A DNA stretch of 64,000 nucleotides, taken from the NCBI GenBank assembly GCA_028280285.1, contig JANQMA010000044.1, forward strand, positions 1,521 to 65,520, written 5' to 3'. This DNA is from Candidatus Omnitrophota bacterium. GTDB lineage: Bacteria; Omnitrophota; Gorgyraeia; Zapsychrales; Zapsychraceae. A program made the position numbers and the translations under genes. The notes beneath the pieces are model-generated. The model was not told where the DNA came from, did no database searches, and worked only from the letters and a program-made list of their open reading frames with translations. The first letter of the stretch is position 1; each line of letters opens with the position of its first letter. This document shows, one piece after another, positions 7,956-48,314 of this stretch.

Positions 7956-7967
7956 TCCCGTGGAGGT

Positions 7968-8312: not shown

Positions 8313-8674
8313 AGAAAATCATTTTAAATATCTGTGGCTTATCATGCGTTGTCCTTGCCGGCATTGGAACGGTTGTGCCGGGGTTGCCGACAACGCCTTT
8401 TTTACTCGTTGCGGCTGCCTGCTTTGCCAAATCATCCCCCAAACTCCACAACTGGCTTTTGACCAACAAAGTCTTTGGTCCGATTATCAAAAATTGGCAG
8501 GAAACAAGAACAATACCCAAACGGGCCAAGTGGATTTCTTTAATTACCGTTATTCTTGTTGCAACCTGCTCGATTTTTACCTTAAACAATGTGTATTTGA
8601 AGGCAATGATTGTTATTATCCTTATTTTTCCGATTATTTTTCTATTTCGGCTTAAGGAAACAGAGGCGCTTTGA
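8309..8674 (+). CDS. DUF454 / YbaN-family inner-membrane protein
   Basis: GLPTTPFLLVAAACFAKSSPKLHNWLL is typical of YbaN. Internal ATG at 8309 is preferred over the overlapping upstream start. Confidence 0.7.
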   Translation: MKKIILNICGLSCVVLAGIGTVVPGLPTTPFLLVAAACFAKSSPKLHNWLLTNKVFGPIIKNWQETRTIPKRAKWISLITVILVATCSIFTLNNVYLKAMIVIILIFPIIFLFRLKETEAL

Positions 8675-8875
8675 GGTGATTTTAAATCAGTAGCCTGAAT
8701 TTTTTATGAAAAATTTAACAATTTACTTGCCTTTTATATTTTTATAGTAATAATAAATTCATATATAACTTTACTTTAAATTGCTGCAAACAAACAAGAT
8801 AGAAATAAATCATACAAAAAAGCCTTTAAGTCAGGTAATCATGCGTTATTCTCCATATAAAGGCAAGGAGCGGAC

Positions 8876-31990: not shown

Positions 31991-32488
31991 ATGATTGCCC
32001 CAACAAACTTTTACTTGAATGCCGTTAAAGGAAGGCCAAGTGCCGAGGTCTTTAACGCCATGCTTCATATTTATTCGCTCCTCCAAATGGAGATGGATAA
32101 ATACTTTGGTCCGTATGATCTGACACCGGTTAAATTCAACACACTCCTTCTCATTAAATATCTAGGGGGAAAAGAGGGTTTGAGTCAGAACGAGATTTCG
32201 CATCATATGATTGTGACACCGTCAAACATCACACGTTTGATTGATCGTCTGATTGCCGATGGCTATGCTGAACGCACTGTATCTATACATGACAGAAGAG
32301 TCAAGATGATTAAGATTACAAAGCCTGGATCACAAATTGTGGATAAAGTATTGCGTGGCTATGGGGATATGATCCAGCAGTCTGTTTATTTATTGGAACG
32401 CTCTGAGGTGGAGCAATTATCAGCGCTTCTGCTGAAATGGTTTCACCGCTTGGATGCGCAAAAAAGGGGAATGAAAAGTGGAGTCTAA
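31991..32488 (+). CDS. MarR-family transcriptional regulator
   Basis: Winged-HTH MarR signature (LSQNEISHHMIVTPSNITRLIDRLIADGYAER...DRRV). Confidence 0.85.
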   Translation: MIAPTNFYLNAVKGRPSAEVFNAMLHIYSLLQMEMDKYFGPYDLTPVKFNTLLLIKYLGGKEGLSQNEISHHMIVTPSNITRLIDRLIADGYAERTVSIHDRRVKMIKITKPGSQIVDKVLRGYGDMIQQSVYLLERSEVEQLSALLLKWFHRLDAQKRGMKSGV

Positions 32489-33269
32489 TATTATTGCGAT
32501 GGTTTTAATAAGTGCAGCGACCGTCATTAGTCTTTTTTTCATTATCTGGATTATACATCTTGTTCTTAATAATGCCGGCGTGGTTGATGTTGGTTGGGGC
32601 CTTGGTTTTACACTCATTGCTCTGATTTATATTTTGCGCGGAGAAGGTTTTAATGCGCGCAACATGCTTATGTTTATCATGGTAGCCCTTTGGGGTACAC
32701 GTATCGTGTTTTTTCTGATTAAACGCATTGTCTTCGAAGGTTACGAGGACAAGCGCTATGCACACTTACGTAATAAATGGGGGAGTAACGCGGCGTTTAA
32801 ATTTTTATGGTTTTTTGAAGCGCAGGCACTTATGCAGATACTTATTTCTATTCCGATATTACTGATCAGTCTAAATCCTAATCCAGCCGTCACGTGGATT
32901 GAGATTTTAGGTTTTGTGATTTGGATGGGCGCTTTATATGGAGAGGCTTTGACCGACGAGCAATTACAAAAGTTTAAAATGAATCCGGCGAATAAAGGAA
33001 AGGTATGTGAAGCAGGTTTGTGGAAATATTCACGTCATCCGAATTATTTTTTCGAAGTCTTGTGCTGGTTCGGATTATTTGTTTTCGGTCTATCCAGTCC
33101 TTATGGATGGTTGGGGGTTATTGCACCGGGGATTATGCTTTATCTTGTGCTATTTGTCACGGGTATTCCTTTAACAGAAGAATTGTCGCTTAAACATCGC
33201 GGCAAAGATTATGAAGAGTATCAGAAAAAAACAAGTTCATTTATTCCATTACCAAGGAGAACGATATGA
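32478..33269 (+). CDS. DUF1295 / isoprenylcysteine-carboxyl-methyltransferase-like membrane protein (steroid 5-alpha-reductase fold)
   Basis: Multi-TM protein with C-terminal YSRHPNYFFE motif. Overlaps marR by 11 nt. Confidence 0.7.
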   Translation: MESNIIAMVLISAATVISLFFIIWIIHLVLNNAGVVDVGWGLGFTLIALIYILRGEGFNARNMLMFIMVALWGTRIVFFLIKRIVFEGYEDKRYAHLRNKWGSNAAFKFLWFFEAQALMQILISIPILLISLNPNPAVTWIEILGFVIWMGALYGEALTDEQLQKFKMNPANKGKVCEAGLWKYSRHPNYFFEVLCWFGLFVFGLSSPYGWLGVIAPGIMLYLVLFVTGIPLTEELSLKHRGKDYEEYQKKTSSFIPLPRRTI

Positions 33270-34306
33270 AATCATTAGCCGCCACAACCCAACCTTTAAT
33301 AGAGAAGGGACTCATTCCCGATCCGCTTGTACGGTTCGGTATTAGAGGACTTCTTAAAGAGAAACTTAAAAAAGAACAACAGTGCCTGGAAGAATCGGGT
33401 AATCAGAGAATACAGCAAATGGTTGATTTTTTAAAGAAGAGTCCGATTGCTGTCAATACACAGGAAGCCAATGAGCAGCATTATGAGGTGCCTACGGAGT
33501 TTTTCCAACTTGTTATGGGTCAACACATGAAATACAGCTGTGGCTATTGGCATGACGGGGTCAAAGACTTTACCCAGTCTGAGCGTGACATGCTTGATAT
33601 CACCATTGAACGGGCCAGTCTTAAGGATGGGCAAGATGTCCTGGAGCTTGGGTGCGGTTGGGGCTCGCTTTCTCTGTATATGGCTGCGCGGTTTCCGGAC
33701 AGTCAGTTTACCGGCATATCCAATTCGCGTACACAAAAGGAGTTTATTGACGGTGAGGCGAAAAAGCGCGGTATTAAAAATCTTCAAATCCGCACCATGG
33801 ATATGAATGATTTTAAGATTGATCAGAAGTTTGATCGTGTTGTCTCGGTGGAGATGTTTGAGCATATGCGCAATTATCAAGAATTGTTTAAACGAATAAG
33901 CGGATGCCTTAAAGAGGGAGGGAAATTATTCGTGCATATTTTTAGTCATAAAAAGTATGCGTATACCTATGAACTCAATGAAGGGTTTGATTGGATGGCA
34001 AGGTACTTTTTTACCGGTGGTATTATGCCGTCGGATGATCTGCTGCTTCATTTTGCCGATCATTTTAATTTAGAAGAGCATTGGCAGGTCAACGGTAAGC
34101 ATTATGAAAAGACATCCAACGGCTGGCTTAAGAATATGGACGCTAATAAAGAAAGAATTATGACTATCTTTAAAGACACTTATGGTTTGGACTATAAAAA
34201 ATGGTGGAATTATTGGCGTATTTTCTTTATGGCCTGCGCTGAACTGTGGGGCTACAAAGACGGCACGGAATGGATTGTTTCACATTATCGGTTTGTTAAG
34301 AAATAG
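33266..34306 (+). CDS. Cyclopropane-fatty-acyl-phospholipid synthase-family SAM methyltransferase (copy 1)
   Basis: LELGCGWGSL SAM motif and a CFA/mycolic-acid cyclopropane synthase-like C-terminus. Confidence 0.85.
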   Translation: MKSLAATTQPLIEKGLIPDPLVRFGIRGLLKEKLKKEQQCLEESGNQRIQQMVDFLKKSPIAVNTQEANEQHYEVPTEFFQLVMGQHMKYSCGYWHDGVKDFTQSERDMLDITIERASLKDGQDVLELGCGWGSLSLYMAARFPDSQFTGISNSRTQKEFIDGEAKKRGIKNLQIRTMDMNDFKIDQKFDRVVSVEMFEHMRNYQELFKRISGCLKEGGKLFVHIFSHKKYAYTYELNEGFDWMARYFFTGGIMPSDDLLLHFADHFNLEEHWQVNGKHYEKTSNGWLKNMDANKERIMTIFKDTYGLDYKKWWNYWRIFFMACAELWGYKDGTEWIVSHYRFVKK

Positions 34307-34311
34307 ATAAA

Positions 34312-34375
34312 AGGTTTTGGGTGTTAGGTGTTGGGTTTTAGATTCTAAAACCTTACACCTTAAACCTAACACCCC
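34312..34375. repeat. G/T-rich vs A/C-rich imperfect hairpin (TTAGG-like units) inside the putative operon
   Basis: GGGTGTTAGGTGTTGGGTTTTAG-att-CTAAAACCTTACACCTTAAACCTAACACCC. The core has a perfect 8-bp stem. Confidence 0.65.
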
Positions 34376-34388
34376 AGGAATTAAAAAT

Positions 34389-35651
34389 ATGGACAGAATC
34401 GCCATAATAGGTACAGGTATTTCGGGCATGGCCGCCGGTTATTTTTTAAAAGATGATTATGACATTACATTCTTTGAGAAAAATGATTACGCCGGTGGGC
34501 ACACCAATACACTCATGGTTGATGAGGACGGCCAGAAGATTCCGATCGATTCTGCCTTTATGGTGTATAACGAAGTGACTTATCCAAAGCTCACGCGGTT
34601 GTTCAGAGAGTTGATGGTTGATACGCGTGACACAGATATGTCATTTAGTGTTCAGCATATGCCGAGTGGACTTGAATACTGTGGCACAGGGTTCAATGGG
34701 TTGTTTGCCCAGCGTCGCAATATTCTAAATCCCCTCCATTATAAAATGCTTTTGGATATCAATCGTTTCAATAAAGAAAGCCTCGAAGTGCTTGAGGAGG
34801 GACGGTTTTGTTATTATTCACTCGGTCAGTATGCGAAAGAAAAAAAATATGGCGAAGATATGCTGTATAAATATTTGATTCCGATGAGCTCGGCTGTCTG
34901 GTCGACACGGCCTGAAGGGATGCTTGATTTTCCCATAGTCACTTTGGTGCGCTTTTTTAAAAATCATGGCTTTTTAGGAATGAATACGCAGCATCAATGG
35001 CGCACGGTTGTCGGTGGCAGCCAAAGCTATCGCGATAAAATTCTCGGCCATTTTGGCAATAAAGTTTATCTGAACACGAATATTGTTGCAGCTAGAAGAG
35101 AAAAAGAAGGGGTTAAACTAAAGGATGCTAAAGATAGTATTTATGATTTTGATAAAGTAATTTTAGCCTCTCATGCTGACCAGACGCTTAAAATATTAGT
35201 TGACGCTCGAGAAGAAGAGCGGGAAGTGTTGTCCTTGTTTCCCTATGGGGCTAACAGGGCAACACTTCACACGGATGATTCGGTTATGCCCAAATGCAAA
35301 CGGGCCTGGTCATCGTGGAATTACCGGATGATTGAAAAAGATAATCAGGTGAAAACCTCAACCATTTACTATATGAATAAATTACAAAAGGTTTCTGAAA
35401 GACAAGACTACTTTATTTCGATTAATGAGTTGGGCGAAATCGATCCCGCTAAAATTATTTGGGAAAAAACCTATTATCATCCACTTTACACCATGGATTC
35501 ACTCGATGGACAAAAGCGCTTGGAAGCGCTTAATGATAACGGACAGGTATATTTTGCCGGGGCGTATTTTAAATACGGCTTTCACGAAGATGGTTTAGCC
35601 TCCGGCATTAATGTGGCATCAAAAATTTTAGGTCGGGAGATATGGCGATGA
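34389..35651 (+). CDS. FAD/NAD-binding amine-oxidase-like oxidoreductase (COG2907; UfaD-like fatty-acid desaturase candidate)
   Basis: Rossmann GxGxxG (IAIIGTGISGMAAG). ATG start at 34389 preferred over the TTG at 34317. Confidence 0.75.
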   Translation: MDRIAIIGTGISGMAAGYFLKDDYDITFFEKNDYAGGHTNTLMVDEDGQKIPIDSAFMVYNEVTYPKLTRLFRELMVDTRDTDMSFSVQHMPSGLEYCGTGFNGLFAQRRNILNPLHYKMLLDINRFNKESLEVLEEGRFCYYSLGQYAKEKKYGEDMLYKYLIPMSSAVWSTRPEGMLDFPIVTLVRFFKNHGFLGMNTQHQWRTVVGGSQSYRDKILGHFGNKVYLNTNIVAARREKEGVKLKDAKDSIYDFDKVILASHADQTLKILVDAREEEREVLSLFPYGANRATLHTDDSVMPKCKRAWSSWNYRMIEKDNQVKTSTIYYMNKLQKVSERQDYFISINELGEIDPAKIIWEKTYYHPLYTMDSLDGQKRLEALNDNGQVYFAGAYFKYGFHEDGLASGINVASKILGREIWR

Positions 35652-36430
35652 ATTCCTGTATTTATGAAGGAAAAGTTATGCATTCTCGGGTTAAGCCCAA
35701 ATATTATAAATTCATCCATGATGTCTTTATGTTTTATCTTGATCTAGATGAGATTGATGCCATTACGCAACGTAATTGGTTTATTTCTCGTAATAAACCT
35801 AATGTATTCAGCTTTTATGACAAAGACCATATGGATTTTGGGAATAAAAATATTAAAGAAAATGTTATTGCTTATGCGAGGAAAAAAGGGTTTAATGGGC
35901 CTATTAAACGGGTGATGCTTTTGACTAACCTTAGGGTTTTTGGGTATGTCTTTAATCCTGTTTCTTTTTATTATTGTTTCGATGAAAACGATAATCCCCT
36001 TTGTTCGATCGCCGAAGTAGGCAATACTTTTGGTGAAATCAAAAACTTCTTTTTAGGACCAGAAACTCTTCATAAAAATCAATTTCTCAGCGAGAAGAAA
36101 AAATATTTTTATGTTTCGCCTTTTGTTGACCTTGATGTGCCGATGGACTTTTGCCTTAAAGTTCCAGGGGAGAAGATAAATATCAAAATTGATGATTTAA
36201 AGAAAAATAAAAAATTTCTCTATACGACATTAACGGGCGAAAGAAGAAAGCTGACAACGTTTGGCGCGTTTAAGTTTGGCGCAATATATCCATTTATAAC
36301 ACTTAAAGTCATCGGCCTGATTCATTATCATGCCGCTGTTCTGCATTTTATTAAAAAAATACCACATCATAAAAAGGCAGCTAATCCGCATTTTCAAAGG
36401 GAGGTGCAAAGTGAATATATTACGAAATAA
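35642..36430 (+). CDS. DUF1365-family protein (UfaO-like candidate)
   Basis: N-terminus CIYEGKVMHSRVKPKYYKF is typical of DUF1365. Confidence 0.75.
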   Translation: MAMNSCIYEGKVMHSRVKPKYYKFIHDVFMFYLDLDEIDAITQRNWFISRNKPNVFSFYDKDHMDFGNKNIKENVIAYARKKGFNGPIKRVMLLTNLRVFGYVFNPVSFYYCFDENDNPLCSIAEVGNTFGEIKNFFLGPETLHKNQFLSEKKKYFYVSPFVDLDVPMDFCLKVPGEKINIKIDDLKKNKKFLYTTLTGERRKLTTFGAFKFGAIYPFITLKVIGLIHYHAAVLHFIKKIPHHKKAANPHFQREVQSEYITK

Positions 36431-37709
36431 TATCCATAAATTGTACCGGGTGATCATGGATCAAGTCTTTACCCATATGAAACTCGGGCGATTGACCGTA
36501 TCTATGCCGGATGGAACCAAGCGGCATTATGGCAACGGTGAAGGTCCGGCCAAGGCGCATATTAATATTCGTCGCGGGGACTTTTTCCGTAAATGTGTTC
36601 ATTACGGAGCGGTTGGATTTGGCGAAAGTTATGTCGACGGTGATTGGGATACGCCGGATTTGACCAAAGTGATCGCATGGATGATTTTAAACCATGAAAA
36701 TCTGCCGGCGGAACGCGGACGAAATAAAAAGTTTACCGTCATTGATGCGTTAAGCTTTCTTAATGTCATTCGCTCGAAATTCCGGCTTAATACCCTCAAT
36801 GGAAGCCGTAAGAATATTTCAGATCATTATGATTTAGGGAATGACTTTTTTAAGCTGTTCCTTGATGAAACGATGACCTATTCCTCGGCGATTTTTACTA
36901 AACCTAATCAGAGCTTGAAGGATGCTCAAGTCGAGAAATACGACCGGCTGTGCCGTCAATTAAAGCTTAGTCATCAAGACCATGTCCTTGAGATCGGAAG
37001 CGGGTGGGGTGGATTTTCGTGCTATGCGGCTAAAAAGTATGGATGCCGGATAACCACAACCACTATCTCGCAAGAGCAATATAAACACGTCAAAAATAAG
37101 ATCAAAAAAGAAGGCTTAGAAAATCAAATTAAGATCAAATTATCCGATTATAGAAGGCTCGCCGGCACCTATGACAAAATTGTCTCAATTGAAATGATCG
37201 AGGCGGTTGGGCATGAGTTTCTTCCGACTTATATCAAAAAGTGCCAGGAGCTTCTCAAGCCAAACGGCCTTTTAGGACTTCAAATGATTTTGTTTCCCGA
37301 TCAGCGTTATGATATTGCCCGCAAAAATGTCGACTGGATTCAGAAACATATTTTTCCCGGAAGTCTTTTGCCGTCAATGAATGCTATTCAAAAGGTGATG
37401 AGGCAGTTAGGAACCATGAATCTACTGGATTACAAGGATATCACGTCCCATTATGCCAAAACGCTTAAGATATGGCGTGAGGCATTTAATCAAAATAAAC
37501 AAAAGATTAAGTCGATGAAACAAACGGAGGAGTTCATTCGTAAATGGAATTATTATTGGTCTTATTGTGAAGCGGCTTTCCGTATGCGCCACATCAATGT
37601 CGCGCAAGCGGTCTTTACAAGGTCCAATAACCACATGCTTCACGATGATCTTGAAGTTGAGCTTAATGGAAAAGATAAGCAATTTATTGAGGAGCTAAGT
37701 TATGTATAA
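36409..37709 (+). CDS. Cyclopropane-fatty-acyl-phospholipid synthase-family SAM methyltransferase (copy 2)
   Basis: [13 protein letters not shown]-domain and [13 protein letters not shown] motif. GTG start at 36409 preceded by the strong SD AAGGGAGGTG. Confidence 0.8.
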
Positions 37710-38208
37710 AAAAACCTTAATGATCGGTCTTTTCATTGTTATCACTGTTTTTAGTTTTACACACAAGGTGGATGCCATGACAAAAACACAGAAATTTTTT
37801 GATGATCTTAGTGTTGATACCATGCATTTAGTCGATGAATATTATACCGAGGATATTCAGTTTCTCGATCCGATGGTCGAAATTACCGGTCGGGATAATT
37901 TAAAAGATTATTACGCCGGTGTTTATGCCGCTGCTGATGAGGTCTCGTTTGAGTATTTAAGTGAAATACAATATCAGCAGGAATTAGTTCTTGTCTGGCG
38001 CATGACGTTCAATAATAAAAAGCTTAATAAGGGAAAAGATATTATTGTTGACGGGACTTCCCATATTAAATTGAATGACCAGGGACAAGCCTACTATCAC
38101 CGGGATTATTTTGATATGGGGGCCATGATTTATAAGTATGTCCCGGTTATGAAGCATATGGTCAAATACGTCAATAGACGCCTCGCCCAAAGTCACGCGA
38201 ATCATTAG
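37702..38208 (+). CDS. Secreted NTF2/SnoaL-like fold protein
   Basis: Signal peptide plus about 140-aa domain with SnoaL-like composition. Confidence 0.45.
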   Translation: MYKKTLMIGLFIVITVFSFTHKVDAMTKTQKFFDDLSVDTMHLVDEYYTEDIQFLDPMVEITGRDNLKDYYAGVYAAADEVSFEYLSEIQYQQELVLVWRMTFNNKKLNKGKDIIVDGTSHIKLNDQGQAYYHRDYFDMGAMIYKYVPVMKHMVKYVNRRLAQSHANH

Positions 38209-38255
38209 ATTAACGATTTTTTCCACCAGTGGTATGTCGGCTCGAGTTAGCCGTT

Positions 38256-38461: not shown

Positions 38462-38601
38462 TACACGCTCAATCCCAAGCAACCGCTTCCAAATATGTTG
38501 CACATTTGTAACATCCATGTCGCAAAAATGTAACATTCACTAGGTATATTAAAATCAGATAGGAAGGTGTTTAAAGTGCGTCTATAGAGGAGGAGCAACC
38601 T

Positions 38602-41037
38602 ATGAAAAGAGTCGATACACATGTCCATACTGAGTATTCCAATGAGCCGTCTGAATGGTTTTTGCGTCAAACAGGTATGAATGAAAGCTATGTTCCGGTT
38701 GAGGAGGCCTATCGTCTGGCCAAATCCAACGGGATGGACTATGTTGTTATTACAGACCATAACACGATTGACGGGGCCTTGGCTCTCAATAAGCTCCATC
38801 CGGAAGATACCTTTATTGGGGTGGAAGTCACCACCGAATTTCCGGAAAATGGCTGTAAAATGCACATCCTTGTCTTTGATATTACCGAAGAACAATTTGC
38901 GCACATCCAGAAAATACGAGGCAATATTTACACTTTTCGTGACTACATAATTGCTGAAAATATTGCCTATTCTGTCGCCCATGCCACTTTTGCGGTTAAT
39001 TGCAGCTTAAGTATGGAAGTGCTTGAAAAATTGATTCTTATGTTTGATGTCTTTGAGGGGATTAATGGGGCGCGTAATCCTTATTTTAATGAAAGCTGGA
39101 TGAAGGCGCTCACACAGCTGACACCGGCCGATATTGCCCGGCTTTACGCCAAATATAAAATTGCGCCTATGAGCCCGGATCCGTGGATCAAAGGGTTTAC
39201 CGGGGGGACGGATGATCATGCCGCGCTTTATATAGGAGAGACCTGGACAGGATGTGAGGCTAATTCAAAGGAAGAGTTTATCCAAAAACTGAAAGATAAA
39301 AAGACATTTGCCTCGGGCCGGCACAATGACTTTAAAGGCATGGCCTATACATTTTCAAAAATCCTTCACCAGGCTTCAGAAAATGGGCTCGCAAAAAAGA
39401 AAGATGAGAACATTTTCAAAATTGTAAGCAACTTAATTTTTAACGGCAGTCGTCCGAGTATGAAACAATCTTACGGTATTCACCGGATGAAATTCAGCCG
39501 TAAAAAGAAAAACAGAATACTGGCCAAATTCATCGATCAGCTCGATACGGATTTGCAAGACATAAAAGATCTGCATGTCGAGGATAAGATCGATTGCATT
39601 TATGATAATTTATCAAACTTGTGCGACGATTTGTTAAAACATTTTGTGACCAAGTCTCAAAAAGACATTGCGGCCGGTGATCTATTCAAATTTGTAAACA
39701 GTATTTCTTCACTGCTGCCTATTGCCTATTTGACGGCGCCGTTTGCCACAACAAGCAAACTGCTTAATCAAGACAGGGAGCTTCTCGAGGAATTCCGCAG
39801 TCAATATATAGAAGACGAGCCGAATGAAGGCAAACGCGTTTATTGGTTTACCGATACATTGATTGATCTCAATGGTGTTTCGGTAACAATCAATAATATG
39901 TATCAATGTGCCAAAAAATATAATGTCGGGCTTAAAATCGTAACCTCTAATCCAAACATAACCGTTGAGGATGACTTAAAAGATGAGATTATTAATTTAC
40001 CGACAATCACATCCATCAAGCCGGGGTTTTACGAAACATACACACTGCATATCCCATCAATCCTAAAATCGATTGAGAAAATTTGTGAATTAAATCCGGA
40101 TGAAATCATTATATCTACGCCGGGAACGGTTGGTCTCATCGGGCTTTTAGCGGCCAAGATATTAGGGATTAAATGCACAGGCATTTATCATTCCGATTTC
40201 GGCGCGCAGGCAAACTATTTGCTCGGAAGTGGATTTACAGCGACGACTGTCGAGAAATATACACATTGGTTTTATAAACAATTAGACAAAATCCGTGTGC
40301 CGACGCATGAGTATATTGACATACTTTCCGCCCAGGGATTTGAGGGAAAAGAAATGAAAAAGTTCAAACGCGGTATTAATACCGATCTATTCGCGTACAA
40401 CACATCTTTTGAAAATGAGGTTCGCAAAAAATACGGCATCAAAGACGGTTTTACCATGATTTATGCCGGACGTGTGAGTAAAGACAAGAGTGTTGATTTT
40501 CTTTCTAAAATCTACAAAGGTGTTTGCCGCAATTATAAAAAAGCAAACCTTATTGTCGCCGGAAACGGCCCGGAGTTAGAGTGGCTTAAAGAAGATCTGA
40601 AAGATTATCCACGCGTGGTTTTTACCGGGAGTATTGAGCGAACGGAATTGACCAAGCTTTATTCTTTTGCCGATCTTTTGGTTTTTCCAAGTACGACAGA
40701 TACATTTGGTATGGTTGTCTTAGAAGCGCAAAGTTGCGGACTGCCGGCGCTTGTTTCGGATCAAGGCGGACCGCAGGAAATTATAAAGAAGCGTGCGACA
40801 GGCCAAGTTATTCCTGCCAATAATTTGTATGAATGGATTGGGCAGATTCTTGAGTTTATTTATCTGTGCGATAATCATCCGGATAAATACATGTTAATCA
40901 GAAAAGAGACACGTAATTGGATTAAAGATAATTATTCCTGGGAAAAGGCATTAGAAGATTTACTTAATGTTTCTATTTTACCGGAAGGGCCGTCGCGTCC
41001 GTCACGTATTTCACTCATCGATGATCCAGTTATTTAA
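38602..41037 (+). CDS. PHP-domain (polymerase/histidinol-phosphatase metal hydrolase) fused to family-4 (GT-B) glycosyltransferase
   Basis: N-terminal HVHTEYSNEPSE...VVITDHN PHP motifs. C-terminal GT4 motifs (GRVSKDKSVD, FVFPSTTDTFGMVVLEAQSCGLPALVSDQGGPQEII). SD GAGGAGGA. Confidence 0.75.
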   Translation: MKRVDTHVHTEYSNEPSEWFLRQTGMNESYVPVEEAYRLAKSNGMDYVVITDHNTIDGALALNKLHPEDTFIGVEVTTEFPENGCKMHILVFDITEEQFAHIQKIRGNIYTFRDYIIAENIAYSVAHATFAVNCSLSMEVLEKLILMFDVFEGINGARNPYFNESWMKALTQLTPADIARLYAKYKIAPMSPDPWIKGFTGGTDDHAALYIGETWTGCEANSKEEFIQKLKDKKTFASGRHNDFKGMAYTFSKILHQASENGLAKKKDENIFKIVSNLIFNGSRPSMKQSYGIHRMKFSRKKKNRILAKFIDQLDTDLQDIKDLHVEDKIDCIYDNLSNLCDDLLKHFVTKSQKDIAAGDLFKFVNSISSLLPIAYLTAPFATTSKLLNQDRELLEEFRSQYIEDEPNEGKRVYWFTDTLIDLNGVSVTINNMYQCAKKYNVGLKIVTSNPNITVEDDLKDEIINLPTITSIKPGFYETYTLHIPSILKSIEKICELNPDEIIISTPGTVGLIGLLAAKILGIKCTGIYHSDFGAQANYLLGSGFTATTVEKYTHWFYKQLDKIRVPTHEYIDILSAQGFEGKEMKKFKRGINTDLFAYNTSFENEVRKKYGIKDGFTMIYAGRVSKDKSVDFLSKIYKGVCRNYKKANLIVAGNGPELEWLKEDLKDYPRVVFTGSIERTELTKLYSFADLLVFPSTTDTFGMVVLEAQSCGLPALVSDQGGPQEIIKKRATGQVIPANNLYEWIGQILEFIYLCDNHPDKYMLIRKETRNWIKDNYSWEKALEDLLNVSILPEGPSRPSRISLIDDPVI

Positions 41038-41042
41038 TTACA

Positions 41043-41120
41043 TGTTGTTTGTTGTTCGTTGATGGTTGTTGGCGGATTTGATTCTAACAACAAACAACTA
41101 ACAACCAACAACTAAAATAA
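41043..41120. repeat. G/T-rich vs A/C-rich palindromic element between GT4 and radical-SAM genes
   Basis: GTTGTTTGTTGTTCGTTGATGGTTGTTGG...CTAACAACAAACAACTAACAACCAACAAC, with flanking CATGTT/AACATG. Confidence 0.65.
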
Positions 41121-41122
41121 AC

Positions 41123-42403
41123 ATGTCACTTCAAGCAGAACTTTCCAAAGTTTTCCTGTTTAGCCAGAATAAAATTCCCGGCCAGTTGATTATTCAAATC
41201 ACCGACCATTGCAATGCCACCTGTCCGCAGTGCGGTATGCGCAAGACCGCTGAGTTTCGCCGTTCTAAACTTGATATAGATCAAATCAAACGTTATATCG
41301 ACAAGGCCGTTGAGAATGGTGTGGAGGCAATGTCGTTTACCGGCGGTGAGCCGATGTTGTTTTTAAATGACTTGGTTGAGATGATCAACTATGCTGGGGC
41401 CGCCGGGATTAAATATATTCGCACCGGCACGAATGGATATCTGTTACGCAAAGGTAAAAGCAAGGATGAATTTGATACACGCATTAAACGGGTCGTTGAA
41501 AAGATTGTGTCAACGCCTGTGCGTAATTTTTGGATTAGCATTGATTCGGCGTGTTTTGATACCCATGAACGGATGCGCGGGTTTGACGGACTAATTGAGG
41601 GTATCGCAATGGCAGTGCCGCTTTTTCATGAAGCCGGATTATACCCTTCAGCTAATTTAGGGATTAACCGTAATCTTGGCGGCGCCGTTACAGAATCTTT
41701 ATGGAGCGAAGATCCGGATGATGAAGAGCATCTTGATAAATTTTATATCGAATTTAAAGATGCGTTTGATCAGTTTTATCGCACGGTGATCGATATGGGA
41801 TTTTCTATTGTGAATATGTGTTATCCGATGAGTGTGCCGGAAGGCGGGACAGATCTTCAATCTGTGTATACTGCAACGTCGATTGATAAGATTGTCAATT
41901 TCTCAAGAGGGGAGCGGCTTAAGCTTTTTACGGCGCTTATTGATACTGTGCCCAAGTACCGTTCGCAAATTCGTATTTTTACCCCTATGAGTTCACTGTA
42001 TACGCTTAAAAAACAATATGAAGATGATGCTTACGAGGCAGGCTATCCTTGCCGCGGCGGCATTGACTTTTTCTTTGTGGACTCCCAGGATGGGCAGACC
42101 TATCCATGCGGCTTTCGCGGCAATGAGAGCTTTGGCGAGTACGACAAGCTTGATATGGAGACTATTGACCGCAATGCCTTTTGCACGAAATGCGATTGGG
42201 AGTGCTTCAGAGATCCATCGGTGCTTTTCGGCCCTTTTATTGAAGGAGTCCGCCAGCCCCTGCAGCTTTTGCGGAAATTCAGCAATAGGCGTGAGTTTCT
42301 TGATCTGTGGCGCAAGGATCTTGCCTACTATGAGTCCTGCGACCTTTTTGATGGCCGTAAGCCAATCAGTTACAATGCGTTAAGAAAATTTAACCTTTCT
42401 TAA
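41123..42403 (+). CDS. Radical SAM enzyme with C-terminal Cys-rich (SPASM/twitch-like) region
   Basis: CNATCPQC is the CX3CX2C motif. Additional Cys clusters (PCRGG...PCGF, CTKCDWEC) may bind an auxiliary cluster. Confidence 0.75.
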   Translation: MSLQAELSKVFLFSQNKIPGQLIIQITDHCNATCPQCGMRKTAEFRRSKLDIDQIKRYIDKAVENGVEAMSFTGGEPMLFLNDLVEMINYAGAAGIKYIRTGTNGYLLRKGKSKDEFDTRIKRVVEKIVSTPVRNFWISIDSACFDTHERMRGFDGLIEGIAMAVPLFHEAGLYPSANLGINRNLGGAVTESLWSEDPDDEEHLDKFYIEFKDAFDQFYRTVIDMGFSIVNMCYPMSVPEGGTDLQSVYTATSIDKIVNFSRGERLKLFTALIDTVPKYRSQIRIFTPMSSLYTLKKQYEDDAYEAGYPCRGGIDFFFVDSQDGQTYPCGFRGNESFGEYDKLDMETIDRNAFCTKCDWECFRDPSVLFGPFIEGVRQPLQLLRKFSNRREFLDLWRKDLAYYESCDLFDGRKPISYNALRKFNLS

Positions 42404-43249: not shown

Positions 43250-44785
43250 ATGCGTGCAGCTGTTATAGATATTGGATCCAATTCAACAAAATTAATTGTT
43301 GGGCAGACTAAAGGTAATTCTGTTGAGATCCTTGATTCACTTAAAAATGTCATTCCGATAGGGCGCAGCACATTTTATCAAGGTAGAATTTCTCAGGAAG
43401 TTTTTAATAATGTCATCCATGTTCTTTTGAAATATAAACGGATTATTAAAGAATATGGGATAGAGGCCCCCAAAGTCATTGCCACAACGGCCGTTCGTGA
43501 GGCGGTCAACCGCGATATTTTTCTCGATACAATTCTGCGTAAAACAGGTTTAAGTGTCGAGGTCCTCAATGTCGGGGATGTTGTTTATTACATTGATACA
43601 TTTTTGTCTTACAAGTTAGAAAAGACGTACCCGATCAATGAAAAAAATCTTTTGATCGCGGAGTTGGGTGCGGGGAGTCTGGATATCTCCATTATGGAGA
43701 AGGGCTTTACACTAATGAATATTGGTTTACCGATTGGAACATCACGCATAAAACAGTTTAAGACTAAAGTGGAGGGAAGCCAAAAGCAGCGTTACACAGC
43801 GCTTGAAGAATACGTGGATAATGAAATTACTCATCTTAAACGAAATTTCTCTCGTATTAAAATTGATGACGTTGTTTTGATAGATGACACATATTCACAG
43901 TATCTGCACCGCATTTTGCCTAATAAGAATAGAAAGAATGTCTTTTTTTCGTTTCAACATAATGAAGCGCAGAGACTCTATAAAAAAATTACGGAAATGA
44001 CAACCGAGGAGCTTGTTGAAAAGCATCAAATACCGGCCGAATCGATCGATGCGATTGACGGCTATGCGATTCTTTTGAAAAAACTTTTTAATCTCGTTAA
44101 GAAAAGATCGTTTTACATTTTAGAAACGTCGCTATCCGAGGCACTTATATCGGATACGTTGCTCGGTCTTAATCTCGACAATAAATTCAGCAAAGAAGCG
44201 CAGCTGGAATCCGTCGCCCAGTTTCTTTGTAAAAAATTTGACGCTGATCTTAGGCATGCCAAACATGTTGTTTATTTATGCGAAAAACTTTTTGAGCAGT
44301 GTCAAAAGTTTTTAGGATTAGAGCAGGGGGATCTTCTTTATCTAAAATTAGCGGCGTATTTACATAATATCGGACGTTTGGTCAATAACCGGGGACATCA
44401 CAAGCATGCCGAATATATTATTTCATCTCTTAATTTGTTCCGGTTAACACAACAGGAGATTAATGTGATCGCTTGTGTGGCGCGTTATCACCGCAAGGCT
44501 ATTCCACAAAAGTCGCATATTTTATTTAATACGCTGTCAACCGAACAGAAGCTCCTGGTGCACAAGCTCTCCGGTCTTCTGCGCCTGGCTAATGCATTGG
44601 ATGCTTCACACCGGCAGAAGGTTGAAAATTTGGATGTTGCTTTCAGTAAGCAAAGAGATATCACCATTACGGTGTATACGAAAAAGGATTTAAGTCTCGA
44701 GAAAGTCTATGTGGATGATGCGCGTAGACTCATTGAAGATATTTCGGGATTGAAAATGAATTTGATTACAAAAAGAGAGGTTTAG
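43250..44785 (+). CDS. ppx: Exopolyphosphatase / guanosine pentaphosphate phosphohydrolase (Ppx/GppA) with C-terminal HD domain
   Basis: AVIDIGSNSTKLIV at the N-terminus. HD motif (HNIGRLVNNRGHHKH). Confidence 0.85.
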   Translation: MRAAVIDIGSNSTKLIVGQTKGNSVEILDSLKNVIPIGRSTFYQGRISQEVFNNVIHVLLKYKRIIKEYGIEAPKVIATTAVREAVNRDIFLDTILRKTGLSVEVLNVGDVVYYIDTFLSYKLEKTYPINEKNLLIAELGAGSLDISIMEKGFTLMNIGLPIGTSRIKQFKTKVEGSQKQRYTALEEYVDNEITHLKRNFSRIKIDDVVLIDDTYSQYLHRILPNKNRKNVFFSFQHNEAQRLYKKITEMTTEELVEKHQIPAESIDAIDGYAILLKKLFNLVKKRSFYILETSLSEALISDTLLGLNLDNKFSKEAQLESVAQFLCKKFDADLRHAKHVVYLCEKLFEQCQKFLGLEQGDLLYLKLAAYLHNIGRLVNNRGHHKHAEYIISSLNLFRLTQQEINVIACVARYHRKAIPQKSHILFNTLSTEQKLLVHKLSGLLRLANALDASHRQKVENLDVAFSKQRDITITVYTKKDLSLEKVYVDDARRLIEDISGLKMNLITKREV

Positions 44786-46816
44786 GTGAAAGTTAAGTTA
44801 AACGAGCGTGAACGGTTTATTGCGCGAGATATAAGCTGGCTAAAGTTTAATCAAAGAGTGCTGGAAGAGTCTGAAGACCGCAATAACCCACTTCTTGAGC
44901 GTGCACGGTTTTTGGCTATTTGTGTGAATAACCTCGACGAGTTTTTGATGGTTCGGCTTGCCGGCCTTAAAGATATTATTGCCTCCGGGTTTAACCGCAA
45001 AGATAAATTCGGCTATTACCCTCAAGAACTGCTTAAGGAACTCAAGGAAGAAGTAAAGGTCCAGCTCGAGCAATTTTATAAAGTCTATCATGGAAGAGTC
45101 CTTAAAAGTTTTGAAAAAAATGATATTCATTTGTGTCGGTACAAGGATTTAAATAAACAGCAGCGGGCGGCAGCCGATGAGTATTTTGAGTCTACACTTT
45201 ATCCGATGATCACACCGATGGGGGTTGATCCGGGCCATCCTTTTCCGGTTTTATCGTCTAAAACGCTGTCCTTTGCCGTTGTTTTAAAGAAACAAAAAAA
45301 AGAATACCTGGCGATTGTGCCTGTACCGAAGTCTGTGCCACGTGTGTTTCTTCTACCGCAGAAAGAGTCGGAGTATAGTTTTATTTTAATCGATGAAATT
45401 ATTCGTCATAATCTAAAACGCTTCTTTAAAGGGTATACGATTAAATCTTTGTCTTTGTTTCGTGTTATTCGTAATAGTGAGCTGGATGTTGAGGAGGAGT
45501 TTACTCCGAATCTTTTGCATTCCATTGATCAAGAGGTTAAAAAACGTGTCCGTTCCAATGTAGTCTATCTTGAAGTGGATAAGCATTGTTCTGATGAGCT
45601 ATTGGAGGTGTTGGCCGAAGGCCTTGACTTTCCTGTCGAAGATGCCACGGTGATCGACGGGCCGCTCGATTTGACCTTCCTCTTTGATTTGATCAAAAAT
45701 GTTGATAAGCCGGAGTTTTTTTATCCGAGTTATGTCCGGAAACAATTAGACTATGAAAACATTTTTGAAAAGATCAAAGAAAAAGATTTTATTTTACATG
45801 TGCCGTATGATTCATTTGATCCAACAGTTGATTTGATTCAGACGGCAGCGCGTGATGTGGATGTCCTTGCCATTAAGATGACGCTTTATCGAACAAGTAA
45901 AGACTCGCCTATTGTCGAGGCGTTAAAAGAGGCGGCCCTTAATAACAAAATTGTCACGGTTTTGGTTGAGATAAAGGCAAGATTTGATGAACAGAATAAT
46001 ATCCGTTGGGTGCGTGAACTGGAGGATGCCGGATGCCATGTAATTTATGGTATTCCCGGGTTTAAGGTGCATGCTAAGATGACACTTGTTATTCGCCGTG
46101 AAGAAGAGCATATTAAGCGTTATGTTCATCTGTCGACCGGAAATTATAATGAAAACACATCTAAAGTCTATACGGACATCGGTTACTTTACGGCCAATGA
46201 AGATTTTGCCAGCGACATTTCCGAGATCTTTAATGTGGTCACCGGTTATTCTAATTCCACACCTTCAGGGAGACTGATTACATCCCCCAATGATATGCGC
46301 GATTATATTAGCGGCTTGATTGAGCAGGAAATTAAATATCATAAAAAATTTAAAAACGGACATATAAAAATCAAATTAAATTCGATTGAAGATACCAAAA
46401 TGATCGATAAATTGTATAAAGCTTCGTGCGAAGGGGTTAAAATCGAATTGATTGTGCGGGGGATTTGCTGTTTGATTCCGGGTTTGAAGGGAGTTAGTGA
46501 TAATATAAAGGTTAAGAGTCTGGTCGGAAGATTTCTGGAGCACACCCGGATATTTACGTTTAATAATAATGGCGAGCCGCGCGTGTTTCTTTCATCGGCT
46601 GATTTTATGAAACGCAATCTCGATAGGCGTATTGAGCTTTTATTTGAGATAACGACCGAGGATATAAAACAAAATATTATAGACATTATTGATGTTGCGT
46701 GGAAAGATACTCTAAAGACGCGTTGGTTAGATAAGACACGTGATTATAAACGACTGCAGCAAATTAAGCATAAGATCAATGCGCATGATGAATTTATCAG
46801 GCGGTATGCTGAGTAA
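44786..46816 (+). CDS. ppk: Polyphosphate kinase 1
   Basis: RFIARDISWLKFNQRVLEE, two PLD-like HKD-type domains and full length (676 aa). GTG start abuts the ppx stop. Confidence 0.9.
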   Translation: MKVKLNERERFIARDISWLKFNQRVLEESEDRNNPLLERARFLAICVNNLDEFLMVRLAGLKDIIASGFNRKDKFGYYPQELLKELKEEVKVQLEQFYKVYHGRVLKSFEKNDIHLCRYKDLNKQQRAAADEYFESTLYPMITPMGVDPGHPFPVLSSKTLSFAVVLKKQKKEYLAIVPVPKSVPRVFLLPQKESEYSFILIDEIIRHNLKRFFKGYTIKSLSLFRVIRNSELDVEEEFTPNLLHSIDQEVKKRVRSNVVYLEVDKHCSDELLEVLAEGLDFPVEDATVIDGPLDLTFLFDLIKNVDKPEFFYPSYVRKQLDYENIFEKIKEKDFILHVPYDSFDPTVDLIQTAARDVDVLAIKMTLYRTSKDSPIVEALKEAALNNKIVTVLVEIKARFDEQNNIRWVRELEDAGCHVIYGIPGFKVHAKMTLVIRREEEHIKRYVHLSTGNYNENTSKVYTDIGYFTANEDFASDISEIFNVVTGYSNSTPSGRLITSPNDMRDYISGLIEQEIKYHKKFKNGHIKIKLNSIEDTKMIDKLYKASCEGVKIELIVRGICCLIPGLKGVSDNIKVKSLVGRFLEHTRIFTFNNNGEPRVFLSSADFMKRNLDRRIELLFEITTEDIKQNIIDIIDVAWKDTLKTRWLDKTRDYKRLQQIKHKINAHDEFIRRYAE

Positions 46817-46850
46817 AATTTTTAAATGTGAAATGCAAAAAATAGCAATA

Positions 46851-46931
46851 TCGTATTTGGTAGTTAGTAATTAGTAATTTGTTGACAAGGTTTTTTGCCA
46901 ATTACCAACTACTAATTACTAAATACCAAAA
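46851..46931. repeat. Palindromic TAGTAATTAGTA-unit element after ppk
   Basis: GGTAGTTAGTAATTAGTAATTTGTTG...CCAATTACCAACTACTAATTACTAAATACC. Confidence 0.65.
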
Positions 46932-46976
46932 GTCTTTTTCGAGTTTTTACTGTGTAGCGGATAGGGAAAGTTACTT

Positions 46977-48314
46977 ATGAAGAAATATTACATCGGTGTT
47001 GATGTAGGGGGAACAAAAATTGCAGCGGCTTTGGTTGAAAGAGCTGGTCAGATTGTTTTACAAGATAAAGTTCCAACGCTGCAAAATGGCAAGCCCGAAG
47101 AGATATATCAACAAATCGTTTCGATTATTGGTTCCCTCCTCAAAGAGGCGAAAATTAAAAAAGAACAGTTAAAAGGTATTGGTATTGGCATTCCGGGCGT
47201 CATTAGCGCTGATCATCGCGATATTAAGGCCGCTCCCAATATTAATCTCACGGGATTTCCTCTCACCGTTTCTTTAGAAAAGGAATACGCAACCGCGGTT
47301 GCTTTGGGTAATGATGTTAATTTAGGTTTACTGGGTGAGATGTGGCTTGGCGCAGGAGGCGATACGCGTAATCTCATCGGAATATTTCCCGGGACCGGTG
47401 TTGGCGGAGCGATTATTGTTAATGGTTATTTAGTCACAGGGGCCCAAGGCGCGGCAGGCGAATTAGGGCATATGATTATCAATCAGTCGAGTAAGAAGTC
47501 CAGTGCCGGAATCAAAGGTACAGTTGAGGCGTTGGCCTCACGACGGGCCATCGAGCGTGATATCCGTGCAGCCGTACGTAATGGCGAGAAGACGGTTGTG
47601 ACCGATCTTTTAGATGGAAGCCTTGCGCAGATTAAGAGTAAGGTTATTGCTGAAGCGCTTAAACTGAAAGATGAAGTGGTGATGCGTGTGATTGATGATG
47701 TTTGTCAGACACTCGCTGACACATGCATTTCCATGCGTCATGCGCTTAATCCGGATAAGATTATTTTTGGCGGCGGACTAATCGAAGCCTGTGGTCATTA
47801 TATGATCCCACGTATTCAGAAGATATCGGACCGCAGTCCTTTTTTCAAAAGGATCGACAATTGTAAAATTGTCGCATCCTATTTAGGCGATGATGCCGTT
47901 CTTCTCGGTGGTGTTTATTTTATTCAGCAAATCTTAGGTGAGAAAATTTCAAGTGTTGATGCTTATTACCCCCATGTTGAATTAAAGGATAAAAATGTAG
48001 TAATCGATAAAAAGAATTATAAGGAAAGTATTTATGTGAGAGCCGATACCAAGGTGCGTTCTATTGAAAGCGAAGGTGATTTTAATAAATTTCGCAAGTC
48101 CAATAAAATTGATGTTGCGGCGATAAGCAAGATATGTAAAAAACATCCGGAGTTTGTGATTATTGCGACCAATGGTTCGCCTGTGCGGGTTACAAAGAAA
48201 GCAGAGAAGTGGCTTATTGGGCAGACGATTAACTATAGAATTGCCCCGATGGCGCAAGCCATTGATTTATACAACACGATTAAGAAGAGAAAAGTGTTAG
48301 TCGTTAAGCATTAG
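46977..48314 (+). CDS. ROK-family sugar kinase (possible polyphosphate/ATP glucokinase) with about 130-aa C-terminal extension
   Basis: YIGVDVGGTKIAAAL and ROK Zn-site region (GELGHM). Located immediately downstream of ppx-ppk. Confidence 0.7.
   Translation: MKKYYIGVDVGGTKIAAALVERAGQIVLQDKVPTLQNGKPEEIYQQIVSIIGSLLKEAKIKKEQLKGIGIGIPGVISADHRDIKAAPNINLTGFPLTVSLEKEYATAVALGNDVNLGLLGEMWLGAGGDTRNLIGIFPGTGVGGAIIVNGYLVTGAQGAAGELGHMIINQSSKKSSAGIKGTVEALASRRAIERDIRAAVRNGEKTVVTDLLDGSLAQIKSKVIAEALKLKDEVVMRVIDDVCQTLADTCISMRHALNPDKIIFGGGLIEACGHYMIPRIQKISDRSPFFKRIDNCKIVASYLGDDAVLLGGVYFIQQILGEKISSVDAYYPHVELKDKNVVIDKKNYKESIYVRADTKVRSIESEGDFNKFRKSNKIDVAAISKICKKHPEFVIIATNGSPVRVTKKAEKWLIGQTINYRIAPMAQAIDLYNTIKKRKVLVVKH

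Follow-up and report, generated by a model that had tools for sequence, protein, structure and literature searches.

A PHP–glycosyltransferase fusion with a recurrent radical SAM partner: a candidate enzyme of phosphate-stress lipid remodelling in anaerobic bacteria

What does a bacterium build with a phosphoesterase and a glycosyltransferase joined in one polypeptide, and what does a radical S-adenosylmethionine (SAM) enzyme encoded beside them contribute? The question is raised by two consecutive genes in a 64,000-nt stretch of contig JANQMA010000044.1 (assembly GCA_028280285.1) from a Candidatus Omnitrophota bacterium, referred to here as the window. The first encodes an 811-aa protein in which an N-terminal PHP domain precedes a GT-B family-4 glycosyltransferase (GT4) domain; the second starts after a gap of 85 nt, lies on the same strand and encodes a 426-aa radical SAM (rSAM) protein. 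Both open reading frames (ORFs) are found where an earlier note on this DNA had placed them (Table 1). In anoxic waters and sediments, phosphorus-free glycolipids serve as markers for phosphate stress, yet little is known of the genes that anaerobes use to make them. We propose that the fusion is an enzyme of membrane-lipid remodelling under phosphate limitation and that the rSAM protein tailors the same product, a reading to which we assign a probability of about 0.5. By analogy, the fusion is best read as a single-polypeptide, non-homologous counterpart of the known pair of PlcP, a phospholipase C, and Agt, a GT4 enzyme.

The fusion architecture is common, not rare. Full-length fusions of ~800 aa account for 914 matches at 41–56% identity, the closest in Omnitrophota and the remainder in Elusimicrobiota, KSB1, Lentisphaerota, Spirochaetota, Fibrobacterota, Cloacimonadota, Desulfobacterota, Deferribacterota and other groups. 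A neighbour-joining tree resolved two deep clades of fusions, ~30% identical to one another, with the window protein in clade A. A search of the literature found no direct description of PHP–glycosyltransferase fusions.

Sequence comparison gave a borderline signal for the PHP domain. The match to PF02811 scored 21.0–21.5 bits, under the gathering cutoff of 26.4; 13 of 22 family members matched the model at E < 0.01 (best E 1.9e-6), and a profile of the 22 N-terminal sequences retrieved no PHP chain from the PDB by HMMER. Sequence methods on their own left the assignment insecure, and structure prediction was needed to settle it. An AlphaFold model of residues 1–410 had a predicted local distance difference test (pLDDT) score of 91.6, and its top Foldseek matches in the PDB were all PHP proteins: RNase AM (7ug9; E 3.6e-7, TMt 0.63), 9etk, 3e0f, 2anu and 2yb1, with PHP domains of Pol III and histidinol phosphatase next. 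The putative metal ligands H7, H9, E75, H88, H127 and D204/D205-H206, together with E28 and D52-H53, did not vary in three alignments (25, 22 and 46 homologs) that cover the two clades, and individual ligands can tentatively be allotted to metal sites from these columns. Invariant ligands and structural matches together confirm the PHP assignment made in the earlier note despite the sub-threshold Pfam score. The predicted model has the distorted (beta/alpha)7-barrel fold of this family, and the weak Pfam and profile results mark the domain as a divergent PHP subfamily.

The segment between the two catalytic domains, previously described as a linker of ~200 aa, turned out to be a domain of its own. 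Residues ~244–405 are conserved and confidently predicted to form eight helices; D342 and P380 are invariant, and the domain had no match in the PDB. The PHP and helical domains are kept together in 1,364 representative clusters. Many relatives of ~575–650 aa (P0249–P0254, P0260, P0267, P0275, P0300, P0323) consist of the PHP domain, the helical domain and the acceptor-binding Glyco_transf_4 half of the glycosyltransferase only; these forms are either naturally split glycosyltransferases or gene fragments that stop at the inter-domain hinge. That the PHP domain, the helical domain and the acceptor-binding half stay together argues for a role of the PHP domain on the acceptor side.

Both Rossmann halves of the C-terminal domain were recognized above their Pfam cutoffs (Glyco_transf_4 at residues 424–595, 33.8 bits against 28.5; Glycos_transf_1 at residues 605–753, 104.3 bits against 26.4), which by sequence places the domain in the retaining GT4 family, as the earlier note had it for GT4. 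Its PDB matches include BshA, GlgA, PimB', MshA and WaaG. The best curated model was NF053787 for GpgS, on which the window protein scored 106 bits and a clade-B protein (L115) 152 bits against a cutoff of 480; neither is a member of that family. Other models of lipid glycosyltransferases that scored were Mgs, IagA/BgsA, Dgs and PimB', and no Agt model was among the NCBIfam matches to fusion proteins. The sucrose-phosphate synthase (SPS) model reached 37.8 bits on the window protein against a cutoff of 576.

Evidence on the substrate of the phosphoesterase came from loci in which the module is split. Here a gene of ~200 codons for a Zn-dependent phospholipase-C-family protein is followed by a GT4 gene that lacks the PHP domain, accompanied by a UDP-glucose 6-dehydrogenase gene (507 bits to TuaD) and the rSAM gene. 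The replacement of the PHP domain by a phospholipase-C-type gene suggests that hydrolysis of a lipid phosphoester is integral to the pathway, and the UDP-glucose 6-dehydrogenase suggests a uronic acid as the sugar donated. The replacement further implies that the phosphoesterase would act on a lipid, probably ahead of the glycosyltransferase step. In the scheme that we favour, the PHP domain would expose an acceptor hydroxyl by taking the phosphate or phospho-head group off a phospholipid or phosphatidate. The GT4 domain would then transfer a hexose or hexuronic acid (glucose or glucuronic acid, GlcA) from a UDP-sugar to this glycerolipid, yielding a phosphorus-free glycolipid. This order of events draws mainly on the phospholipase-C replacement and on the precedent of PlcP and Agt. 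It is the reverse of the sequence suggested in the earlier note, transfer followed by dephosphorylation, which the split variants disfavour.

The PHP domain might instead hydrolyse a nucleotide, either the UDP by-product or a pAp-like compound, to drive the reaction or salvage phosphate, while the GT4 domain still makes a glycolipid. We consider this unlikely. It remains a serious rival because the nearest PHP relatives hydrolyse nucleotides: the closest structures are RNase AM/TrpH and the 3',5'-bisphosphate nucleotidase Cv1693 with bound AMP, and the JGI annotation places the domain in the TrpH-type phosphoesterase group. What speaks for a lipid substrate is that the gene standing in for the PHP domain in split variants belongs to a phospholipase C family and not to the nucleotidases, and that the helical domain ties the PHP domain to the acceptor-binding half of GT4, an arrangement still present in the ~600-aa forms without a donor half.

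Gene neighbourhoods place the module among functions in phosphate and phospholipid metabolism. Among clade-B loci of an unbiased sample, pstS-pstC-pstA-pstB-phoU lies directly downstream of the fusion in L166, phoH and pstS adjoin it in L168, an alkaline phosphatase gene is nearby in L167, and in L171 the fusion is divergent from phoH and an OlsF-like gene. We took a Pfam census of the genes flanking the module in rSAM-centred loci (149 genes) and in clade-A loci (142 genes), ~290 together. The rSAM census was led by phosphatidylserine decarboxylase (Psd; five occurrences), followed by LysE, low-molecular-weight (LMW) phosphatase, alkaline phosphatase, class-3 lipase (Lipase_3), Zn-phospholipase C and two OlsF domains. 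Alkaline phosphatase genes were present in seven rSAM loci and OlsF-like genes in eight, the latter scoring 406 bits against an ornithine-lipid synthase model. The clade-A census returned two-component regulators of the OmpR/PhoB type, PhoU, Ppx, ROK proteins, UPF0104/LPG_synthase_TM, GNAT acyltransferases of the aminolipid type and additional glycosyltransferases; the UPF0104/LPG_synthase_TM gene sits immediately 5' of the fusion in L004, L021 and L064. In the window itself, genes for Ppx/GppA, PPK1 and a ROK kinase follow just downstream (43250–48314), and the same trio stands beside the fusion in two metagenome-assembled genomes (MAGs) of Victivallales (L001 and L002, ~5186–9734). As a neighbour of the fusion, this polyphosphate gene set recurs across phyla.

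Taken together, the phosphate, phospholipid and aminolipid neighbours indicate a context of lipid remodelling under phosphate limitation rather than compatible-solute synthesis. They lend support to one of the products that the earlier note had offered, a glycolipid or cell-envelope component. That note had also read a stress context from the membrane proteins Pmp3 and DUF4126 encoded downstream. Pfam confirmed both proteins in the window, and neither is conserved beside the module in related loci; the stress that the neighbourhoods support is phosphate limitation. Tblastn searches for Pmp3, DUF4126, SnoaL and the cyclopropane-fatty-acid-synthase cluster were negative in 163 of 163 related loci, and these genes were discarded as parts of the system.

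A possible regulatory counterpart lies upstream of the fusion gene. Four direct TGTnnCA units begin at 38496, 38507, 38517 and 38528, 67–106 nt 5' of the start codon, and form a 22-nt tandem repeat that is 77% identical. No other such chain exists on either strand of the window, and none arose in 200 simulated sequences. PhoB and PhoP boxes are direct repeats with helical periodicity that take the place of a -35 element. The array and the TATATT hexamer behind it resemble this layout and make a putative operator; the hexamer was not called by our sigma-70 scan, which demands a -35 hexamer. Within 2.19 Mb of related loci the array was not found except in L164, whose sequence is identical to the window, and L008 has just two GTAAC(A/C) motifs ~22 nt apart, a weak resemblance, and no TGTnnCA array of the same definition. 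The pstSCAB-phoU, phoH, PhoU, alkaline phosphatase and Ppx/PPK genes beside the module, with this Pho-box-like array, suggest a link to the Pho regulon at the level of gene context, and phosphate may regulate the module in its host.

The nearest experimental parallel is Dde_3613 of Desulfovibrio (Oleidesulfovibrio) alaskensis G20, annotated as "glycosyltransferase group I, Agt homolog". A transposon mutant in this gene makes no MGDG or GADG glycolipids and is unfit solely under phosphate limitation, and an OlsF homolog makes ornithine lipids in the same organism (PMC5193443). That homolog is reported to act alongside Dde_3613, and OlsF-like genes are neighbours of the module in the loci analysed here. 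Judged by its annotation string, Dde_3613 probably shares the PHP–glycosyltransferase architecture and belongs to the family. The published work treated it as a plain Agt homolog, did not mention the PHP part and reported no rSAM partner (PMC5193443, Bosak et al. 2016). The immediate neighbours of Dde_3613 are without fitness data, and its host differs from the Omnitrophota-like MAG that carries the window.

The second parallel comes from marine and soil bacteria, where an operon induced under phosphate stress encodes PlcP and the GT4 enzyme Agt/GTcp. The two convert phospholipid to diacylglycerol and then to glucosyl- or glucuronosyl-diacylglycerol with UDP-Glc or UDP-GlcA as donor (PMC4796936, PMC8231724). 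Both systems couple a metal-dependent phosphoesterase to a GT4 enzyme and co-occur with aminolipid synthesis and alkaline phosphatase. They differ in their parts: PlcP is a calcineurin-like Mn metallophosphoesterase, whereas the fusion has a PHP domain and the split variants have Zn_dep_PLPC, so that the module is not a member of the PlcP-Agt system. PlcP and Agt are also separate proteins, with an Agt/GTcp of ~334 aa in its own GT4 clade and neither a helical bridging domain nor an rSAM partner, and their carriers are mostly aerobic Proteobacteria and Flavobacteria whereas those of the fusion are anaerobes. The fusion is probably a fused, non-homologous variant of the PlcP-Agt remodelling logic and a relative of Dde_3613.

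GpgS, whose model gave the best GT4 score, is an experimentally characterized GlcNAc-phosphatidylglycerol synthase; in the GpgS-GpgD-GpgF system of P. aeruginosa, which makes GlcN-phosphatidylglycerol, and in HexSDF of C. difficile, GpgF and HexF are predicted UPF0104 flippases (PMC12713373). The module is similar in having a cytoplasmic GT4 enzyme that would act on a membrane-lipid head group and, in L004, L021 and L064, a UPF0104/COG0392 flippase-like partner. It differs in that the GpgS system has a deacetylase partner, absent from the module, and GpgS is without a PHP domain, helical domain or rSAM partner.

The same evidence bears on two other products. In the first, the fusion would remodel a different envelope lipid, replacing the phosphate of lipid A or of a polyprenyl-linked precursor with a sugar, possibly a uronic acid, that the rSAM enzyme then tailors. 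Some bacteria carry uronic acids in place of lipid A phosphates, the carriers of the fusion are almost all diderm anaerobes, models of LPS-type GT4 enzymes (WaaG, PRK15484, RfaG) match the domain, extra glycosyltransferases are frequent neighbours, and split variants encode UDP-glucose dehydrogenase. Even so, we hold this product to be distinctly unlikely: no lpx, kdo or waa genes were prominent in the two neighbour censuses, where the lipid enzymes are those of glycerophospholipids (Psd, Lgt-like protein, phospholipase C, lipase, OlsF), and the phenotype of the Dde_3613 mutant concerns diacylglycerol glycolipids.

In the second, the GT4 domain would glycosylate a soluble phosphorylated acceptor (a sugar-, glycerate- or inositol-phosphate), the PHP domain would dephosphorylate the product and the rSAM enzyme would modify the resulting soluble glycoside, much as in the compatible-solute model of the earlier note. 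There are GT4 precedents in sucrose-phosphate synthase with its phosphatase and in MshA, which acts on inositol phosphate; models of the MshA, BshA and SPS types match the GT4 domain at 51–69 bits, and neither the fusion nor the rSAM protein has a transmembrane segment. Several rSAM loci also carry sample identifiers that turn up in batches. We nevertheless judge a soluble product improbable, and gene content gives the compatible-solute model no support, since none of the ~290 flanking genes belongs to a solute pathway (MIPS, glycerate kinase, osmolyte transporters) and phospholipid, Pho and aminolipid genes dominate. The phosphoesterase replacement in split variants comes from a phospholipase C family, the strongest GT4 matches are lipid glycosyltransferases, and the probable relative Dde_3613 makes glycolipids. 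The solute systems SPS/SPP, GpgS/GpgP and MpgS/MpgP combine a HAD or histidine-phosphatase partner, a dedicated glycosyltransferase family (GT20/55/78/81 or the SPS clade) and a solute context, none of which is found here, where the phosphatase is a PHP domain.

A glycolipid product would also give the rSAM protein a substrate. In clade A, an rSAM homolog (45–66% identical) is adjacent to the fusion in 7 of 80 loci, from Omnitrophota, Desulfobacterota and Deferribacterota. Partners in clade B were first met via the rSAM gene, and a separate, unbiased sample of seven clade-B loci, chosen by length of DNA alone, had an adjacent rSAM gene in four, which disposed of the idea that clade B is always rSAM-linked. 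Searching from the other side, the rSAM family has 1,793 matches, and ~58 of 83 rSAM-centred loci carry a full-length or contig-truncated PHP–GT4 gene directly beside it, on either side, at gaps of ~70–370 nt and nearly always on the same strand. In the 31 rSAM loci whose flanks each reach 2.7 kb or more, the fusion is adjacent in ~20 and there is nothing in 6. The two frames overlap by 1–4 nt in clade-B loci L115, L169, L170 and L171 and apparently overlap in L008, the closest relative. The pairing recurs in several phyla, with either gene first and often with frames that overlap, which makes chance adjacency very unlikely; the rSAM protein is a recurrent, tightly coupled and optional partner of the fusion. 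A lack of synteny in relatives, which the earlier note had named as evidence against its view, was not observed, and that note's view of the rSAM protein as a partner stands with the qualification that most clade-A fusions have no rSAM gene nearby.

The protein belongs to the radical SAM superfamily, with a PF04055 score of 55.3 bits (cutoff 29.5) and an invariant CX3CX2C motif. Seven further cysteines are conserved in the 26-sequence alignment, including C233, which is invariant, and C406, which is nearly so; the extra cysteine clusters listed in the earlier note are therefore real features of the family. Its predicted structure gave 126 PDB matches at E <= 0.001, the best 50 of which were all rSAM enzymes, and the fold aligns over 330–390 columns with SkfB, SuiB, anSME, CteB and BlsE. 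The Pfam SPASM model did not match, and the Pfam scan found no B12 domain. In SPASM/twitch enzymes, a C-terminal CX9-15GX4C hairpin and more cysteines (CX2CX5CX3C...C in SPASM) hold one or two additional [4Fe-4S] clusters. C310-X13-G-X4-C329 fits the first half of the SPASM pattern, while C354-X2-C357-X3-C361 with C233 and C406 is non-canonical. From the model, it is reasonable to call the protein SPASM/twitch-like but non-canonical; the label given in the earlier note is favoured by fold and not by Pfam.

By phmmer, family profile and fold alike, the closest solved relative is BlsE (PDB 7vob). The BlsE model TIGR04466 gave 39.6 bits against an equivalog cutoff of 400, so that the protein is not a member, and its C310...C329 stretch aligns with the equivalent hairpin of BlsE, an alignment that alone is not significant. 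BlsE decarboxylates a glucuronide, although its substrate is cytosylglucuronate, an intermediate of a nucleoside antibiotic, and not a lipid. This substrate is a glucuronide made by a glycosyltransferase from UDP-GlcA, an origin that fits the UDP-glucose dehydrogenase of the split variants. The window protein has more conserved auxiliary cysteines than BlsE (six or seven), and the helical region at its C terminus is different. In calditol synthase Cds and in HpnJ, an rSAM enzyme rearranges a sugar that a glycosyltransferase has put on a membrane lipid. The pathway logic is alike by description; HpnJ is a B12-binding rSAM enzyme, unlike the window protein. Where the rSAM enzyme is present, it would act on the sugar or uronic-acid head group by radical chemistry, most likely an oxidation, a decarboxylation or a rearrangement, and our leading guess is decarboxylation or oxidation of the uronosyl group. 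It is very improbable that the rSAM protein is instead a SPASM-type maturase of the fusion or of a small peptide, or a neighbour without functional meaning: SkfB, SuiB, anSME and CteB do come close to BlsE by fold score, and rSAM and fusion genes each occur alone (most clade-A fusions; 6 of the 31 fully informative rSAM loci), but the pairing is too recurrent, no conserved small ORF accompanies it, and most lineages would not lack a maturase on which the fusion depended.

Several points weigh against a lipid-remodelling role. The nearest structural relatives of the PHP domain, RNase AM and pAp phosphatase, act on nucleotides or RNA, and we know of no lipid phosphoesterase in the PHP family. 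Every curated family score lies far below its cutoff and marks resemblance, not membership. The absence of transmembrane segments from both proteins, where the sole hydrophobic stretch is the GT4 Rossmann core, led us to abandon membrane anchoring. The split variant is present in just three independent loci (L128, L142 and L143/L144). Dde_3613 is linked to the window protein by an annotation string and not by alignment. Neighbourhoods are heterogeneous, with no single neighbour in more than ~10% of loci, and ORF calling was crude. The similarity of the rSAM protein to BlsE is remote (~16% identity, TM-score 0.48–0.60), with peptide-modifying SPASM enzymes scoring nearly equal. The TGTnnCA pattern was defined post hoc, from sequence already in view, and is not conserved in relatives; the array is only a lead.

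Against this background, we regard as possible, if doubtful, the bolder proposition that this is the first lipid-directed PHP phosphoesterase, turning phospholipid directly into the acceptor of the glycosyltransferase to which it is fused, that the rSAM enzyme performs an undescribed radical reaction on a glycolipid head group, such as decarboxylation or rearrangement of a glucuronosyl lipid, and that the product is a new class of phosphorus-free lipid in anaerobes. Lipid remodelling under phosphate limitation would tie to phosphate-stress glycolipids a very widespread PHP–GT4 design, whose homologs number in the thousands and come from Omnitrophota, Desulfobacterota, Fibrobacterota, Spirochaetota, PVC and candidate phyla. 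This reading proposes a glycolipid enzyme with a built-in phosphoesterase, which the published work on Dde_3613 did not discuss, and defines the rSAM family of ~1,800 sequences as a dedicated partner of the fusion. Cultured carriers of the module exist, for example Desulfosarcina alkanivorans (AP021874), Desulfococcus and Denitrovibrio.

Table 1. Coordinates of the features discussed. Positions refer to the window unless preceded by the handle of a related locus.
Feature	Position	Strand	Evidence or comment
Fusion gene (PHP, helical domain, GT4)	38602..41037	+	ORF, Pfam, 914 homologs, alignment
PHP phosphoesterase domain, aa 1-244	38602..39333	+	Invariant columns, model, Foldseek
Conserved all-helical domain, aa ~245-405	39334..39816	+	Eight predicted helices, pLDDT mostly 83-95
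GT-B family-4 glycosyltransferase domain, aa ~410-790	39829..40971	+	Pfam, NCBIfam and PDB matches
rSAM gene, 426 aa	41123..42403	+	ORF, PF04055 55 bits, 1,793 homologs, model pLDDT 90.4
Codons of cluster motif C30-X3-C34-X2-C37	41210..41233	+	Invariant in 26 sequences
Codons of C310-X13-G-X4-C329 and C354-X2-C357-X3-C361	42050..42205	+	Invariant columns; C233 and C406 outside this span
Four direct TGTnnCA units, 11/10/11-nt spacing	38496..38535	+	Candidate operator, Pho-box-like geometry
-10-like hexamer TATATT	38545..38550	+	9 nt past last repeat unit; no -35-like element; inferred from sequence
Shine-Dalgarno-like GAGGAGGAG	38587..38595	+	Ends 6 nt ahead of fusion ATG; read from sequence
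Imperfect palindrome, ~four GTTGTTN heptads and complements	41044..41112	+	Predicted hairpin, no U-tract after it; window-specific
Split module	L128 5308-9224; L142 4854-9194; L143 6211-10387; L144 203-4379

The locus family may also be relevant to other lipids of phosphate-starved sulfate reducers. Under phosphate limitation, Desulfatibacillum alkenivorans forms glucuronosyl lipids and tentatively identified cysteine-containing BACys, for which no biosynthetic genes were named (PMC11181052). A trio consisting of a ~810-aa protein, a Psd-like decarboxylase and an Lgt-like protein is encoded beside clade-B fusions (L165 1-4043; L167 1192-5817; L100 4074-7543; L149 2843-7451). Lgt chemistry forms a thioether between a cysteine thiol and the diacylglyceryl group of phosphatidylglycerol. 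As a speculation, the trio is a candidate for making the sulfur-containing BACys aminolipids, and the locus family with these genes might explain both the GlcA-ether and the BACys lipids of such organisms; we flag them as candidate genes. An 810-aa ORF in the window (13358-15790), considered as a second paralog of the fusion, proved not to be one. A soluble protein of ~570 aa is encoded directly 3' of the fusion in Fibrobacterota, Lentisphaerales, Spirochaetes and Chitinivibrionales (L014 12442-14163; L016 7407-9119; L030 8063-9769; L068 12446-14158; L009 5317-6269), and neither it nor the ~810-aa neighbour had a sequence match in Pfam, NCBIfam or the PDB.

LMWPc genes of the ArsC/Wzb type lie at most three genes from the module in six rSAM-centred loci (L120 5211-5663; L131 1824-2270; L083 3726-4166; L133 4123-4632; also L145 and L147). 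These recurrent LMW protein tyrosine phosphatase genes raised the idea of a CpsB-type tyrosine phosphatase role for the PHP domain, which we dropped on finding no entry named CpsB or YwqE among the 50 structural matches listed. The ROK kinase of the window is fused to a region with a weak, sub-threshold match to DUF498.

The palindromic spacer described in the earlier note is present between the two genes of the window. Its 27-nt arms (41044-41070 and 41086-41112) are 85% complementary, the spacer has a predicted folding energy of -25.7 kcal/mol (z = -4.56 against shuffled sequence), and the window has a single copy of the palindrome. The 85-nt spacer gave no call for a terminator-like or promoter-like site, and co-transcription of the two genes in the window is plausible. 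A conserved role of the hairpin in regulation or termination was rejected: no U-tract follows it, it was not called as a terminator, and L008, L003, L040 and L065 lack it, their genes instead abutting or overlapping. The CA-rich arm extends as far as the start codon of the rSAM gene, for which there is no Shine-Dalgarno sequence, and as a local peculiarity the hairpin could gate translation of the rSAM gene.

Upstream of the fusion, a co-directional cluster (31991-38208) encodes MarR, DUF1295, a CMAS-like methyltransferase, an amine-oxidase-type flavoprotein, DUF1365, cyclopropane-fatty-acid synthase (289 bits) and SnoaL/DUF2358; this lipid-modification cluster closes at a terminator-like hairpin (38238-38253). 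Across the window, 53 of the 62 ORFs of at least 150 aa are on the + strand, several of the 9 on the minus strand overlap genes of the + strand, and the GC skew stays positive over the entire span (1-64000). The strand bias and GC skew fit a single replication arm whose genes are strongly co-oriented.

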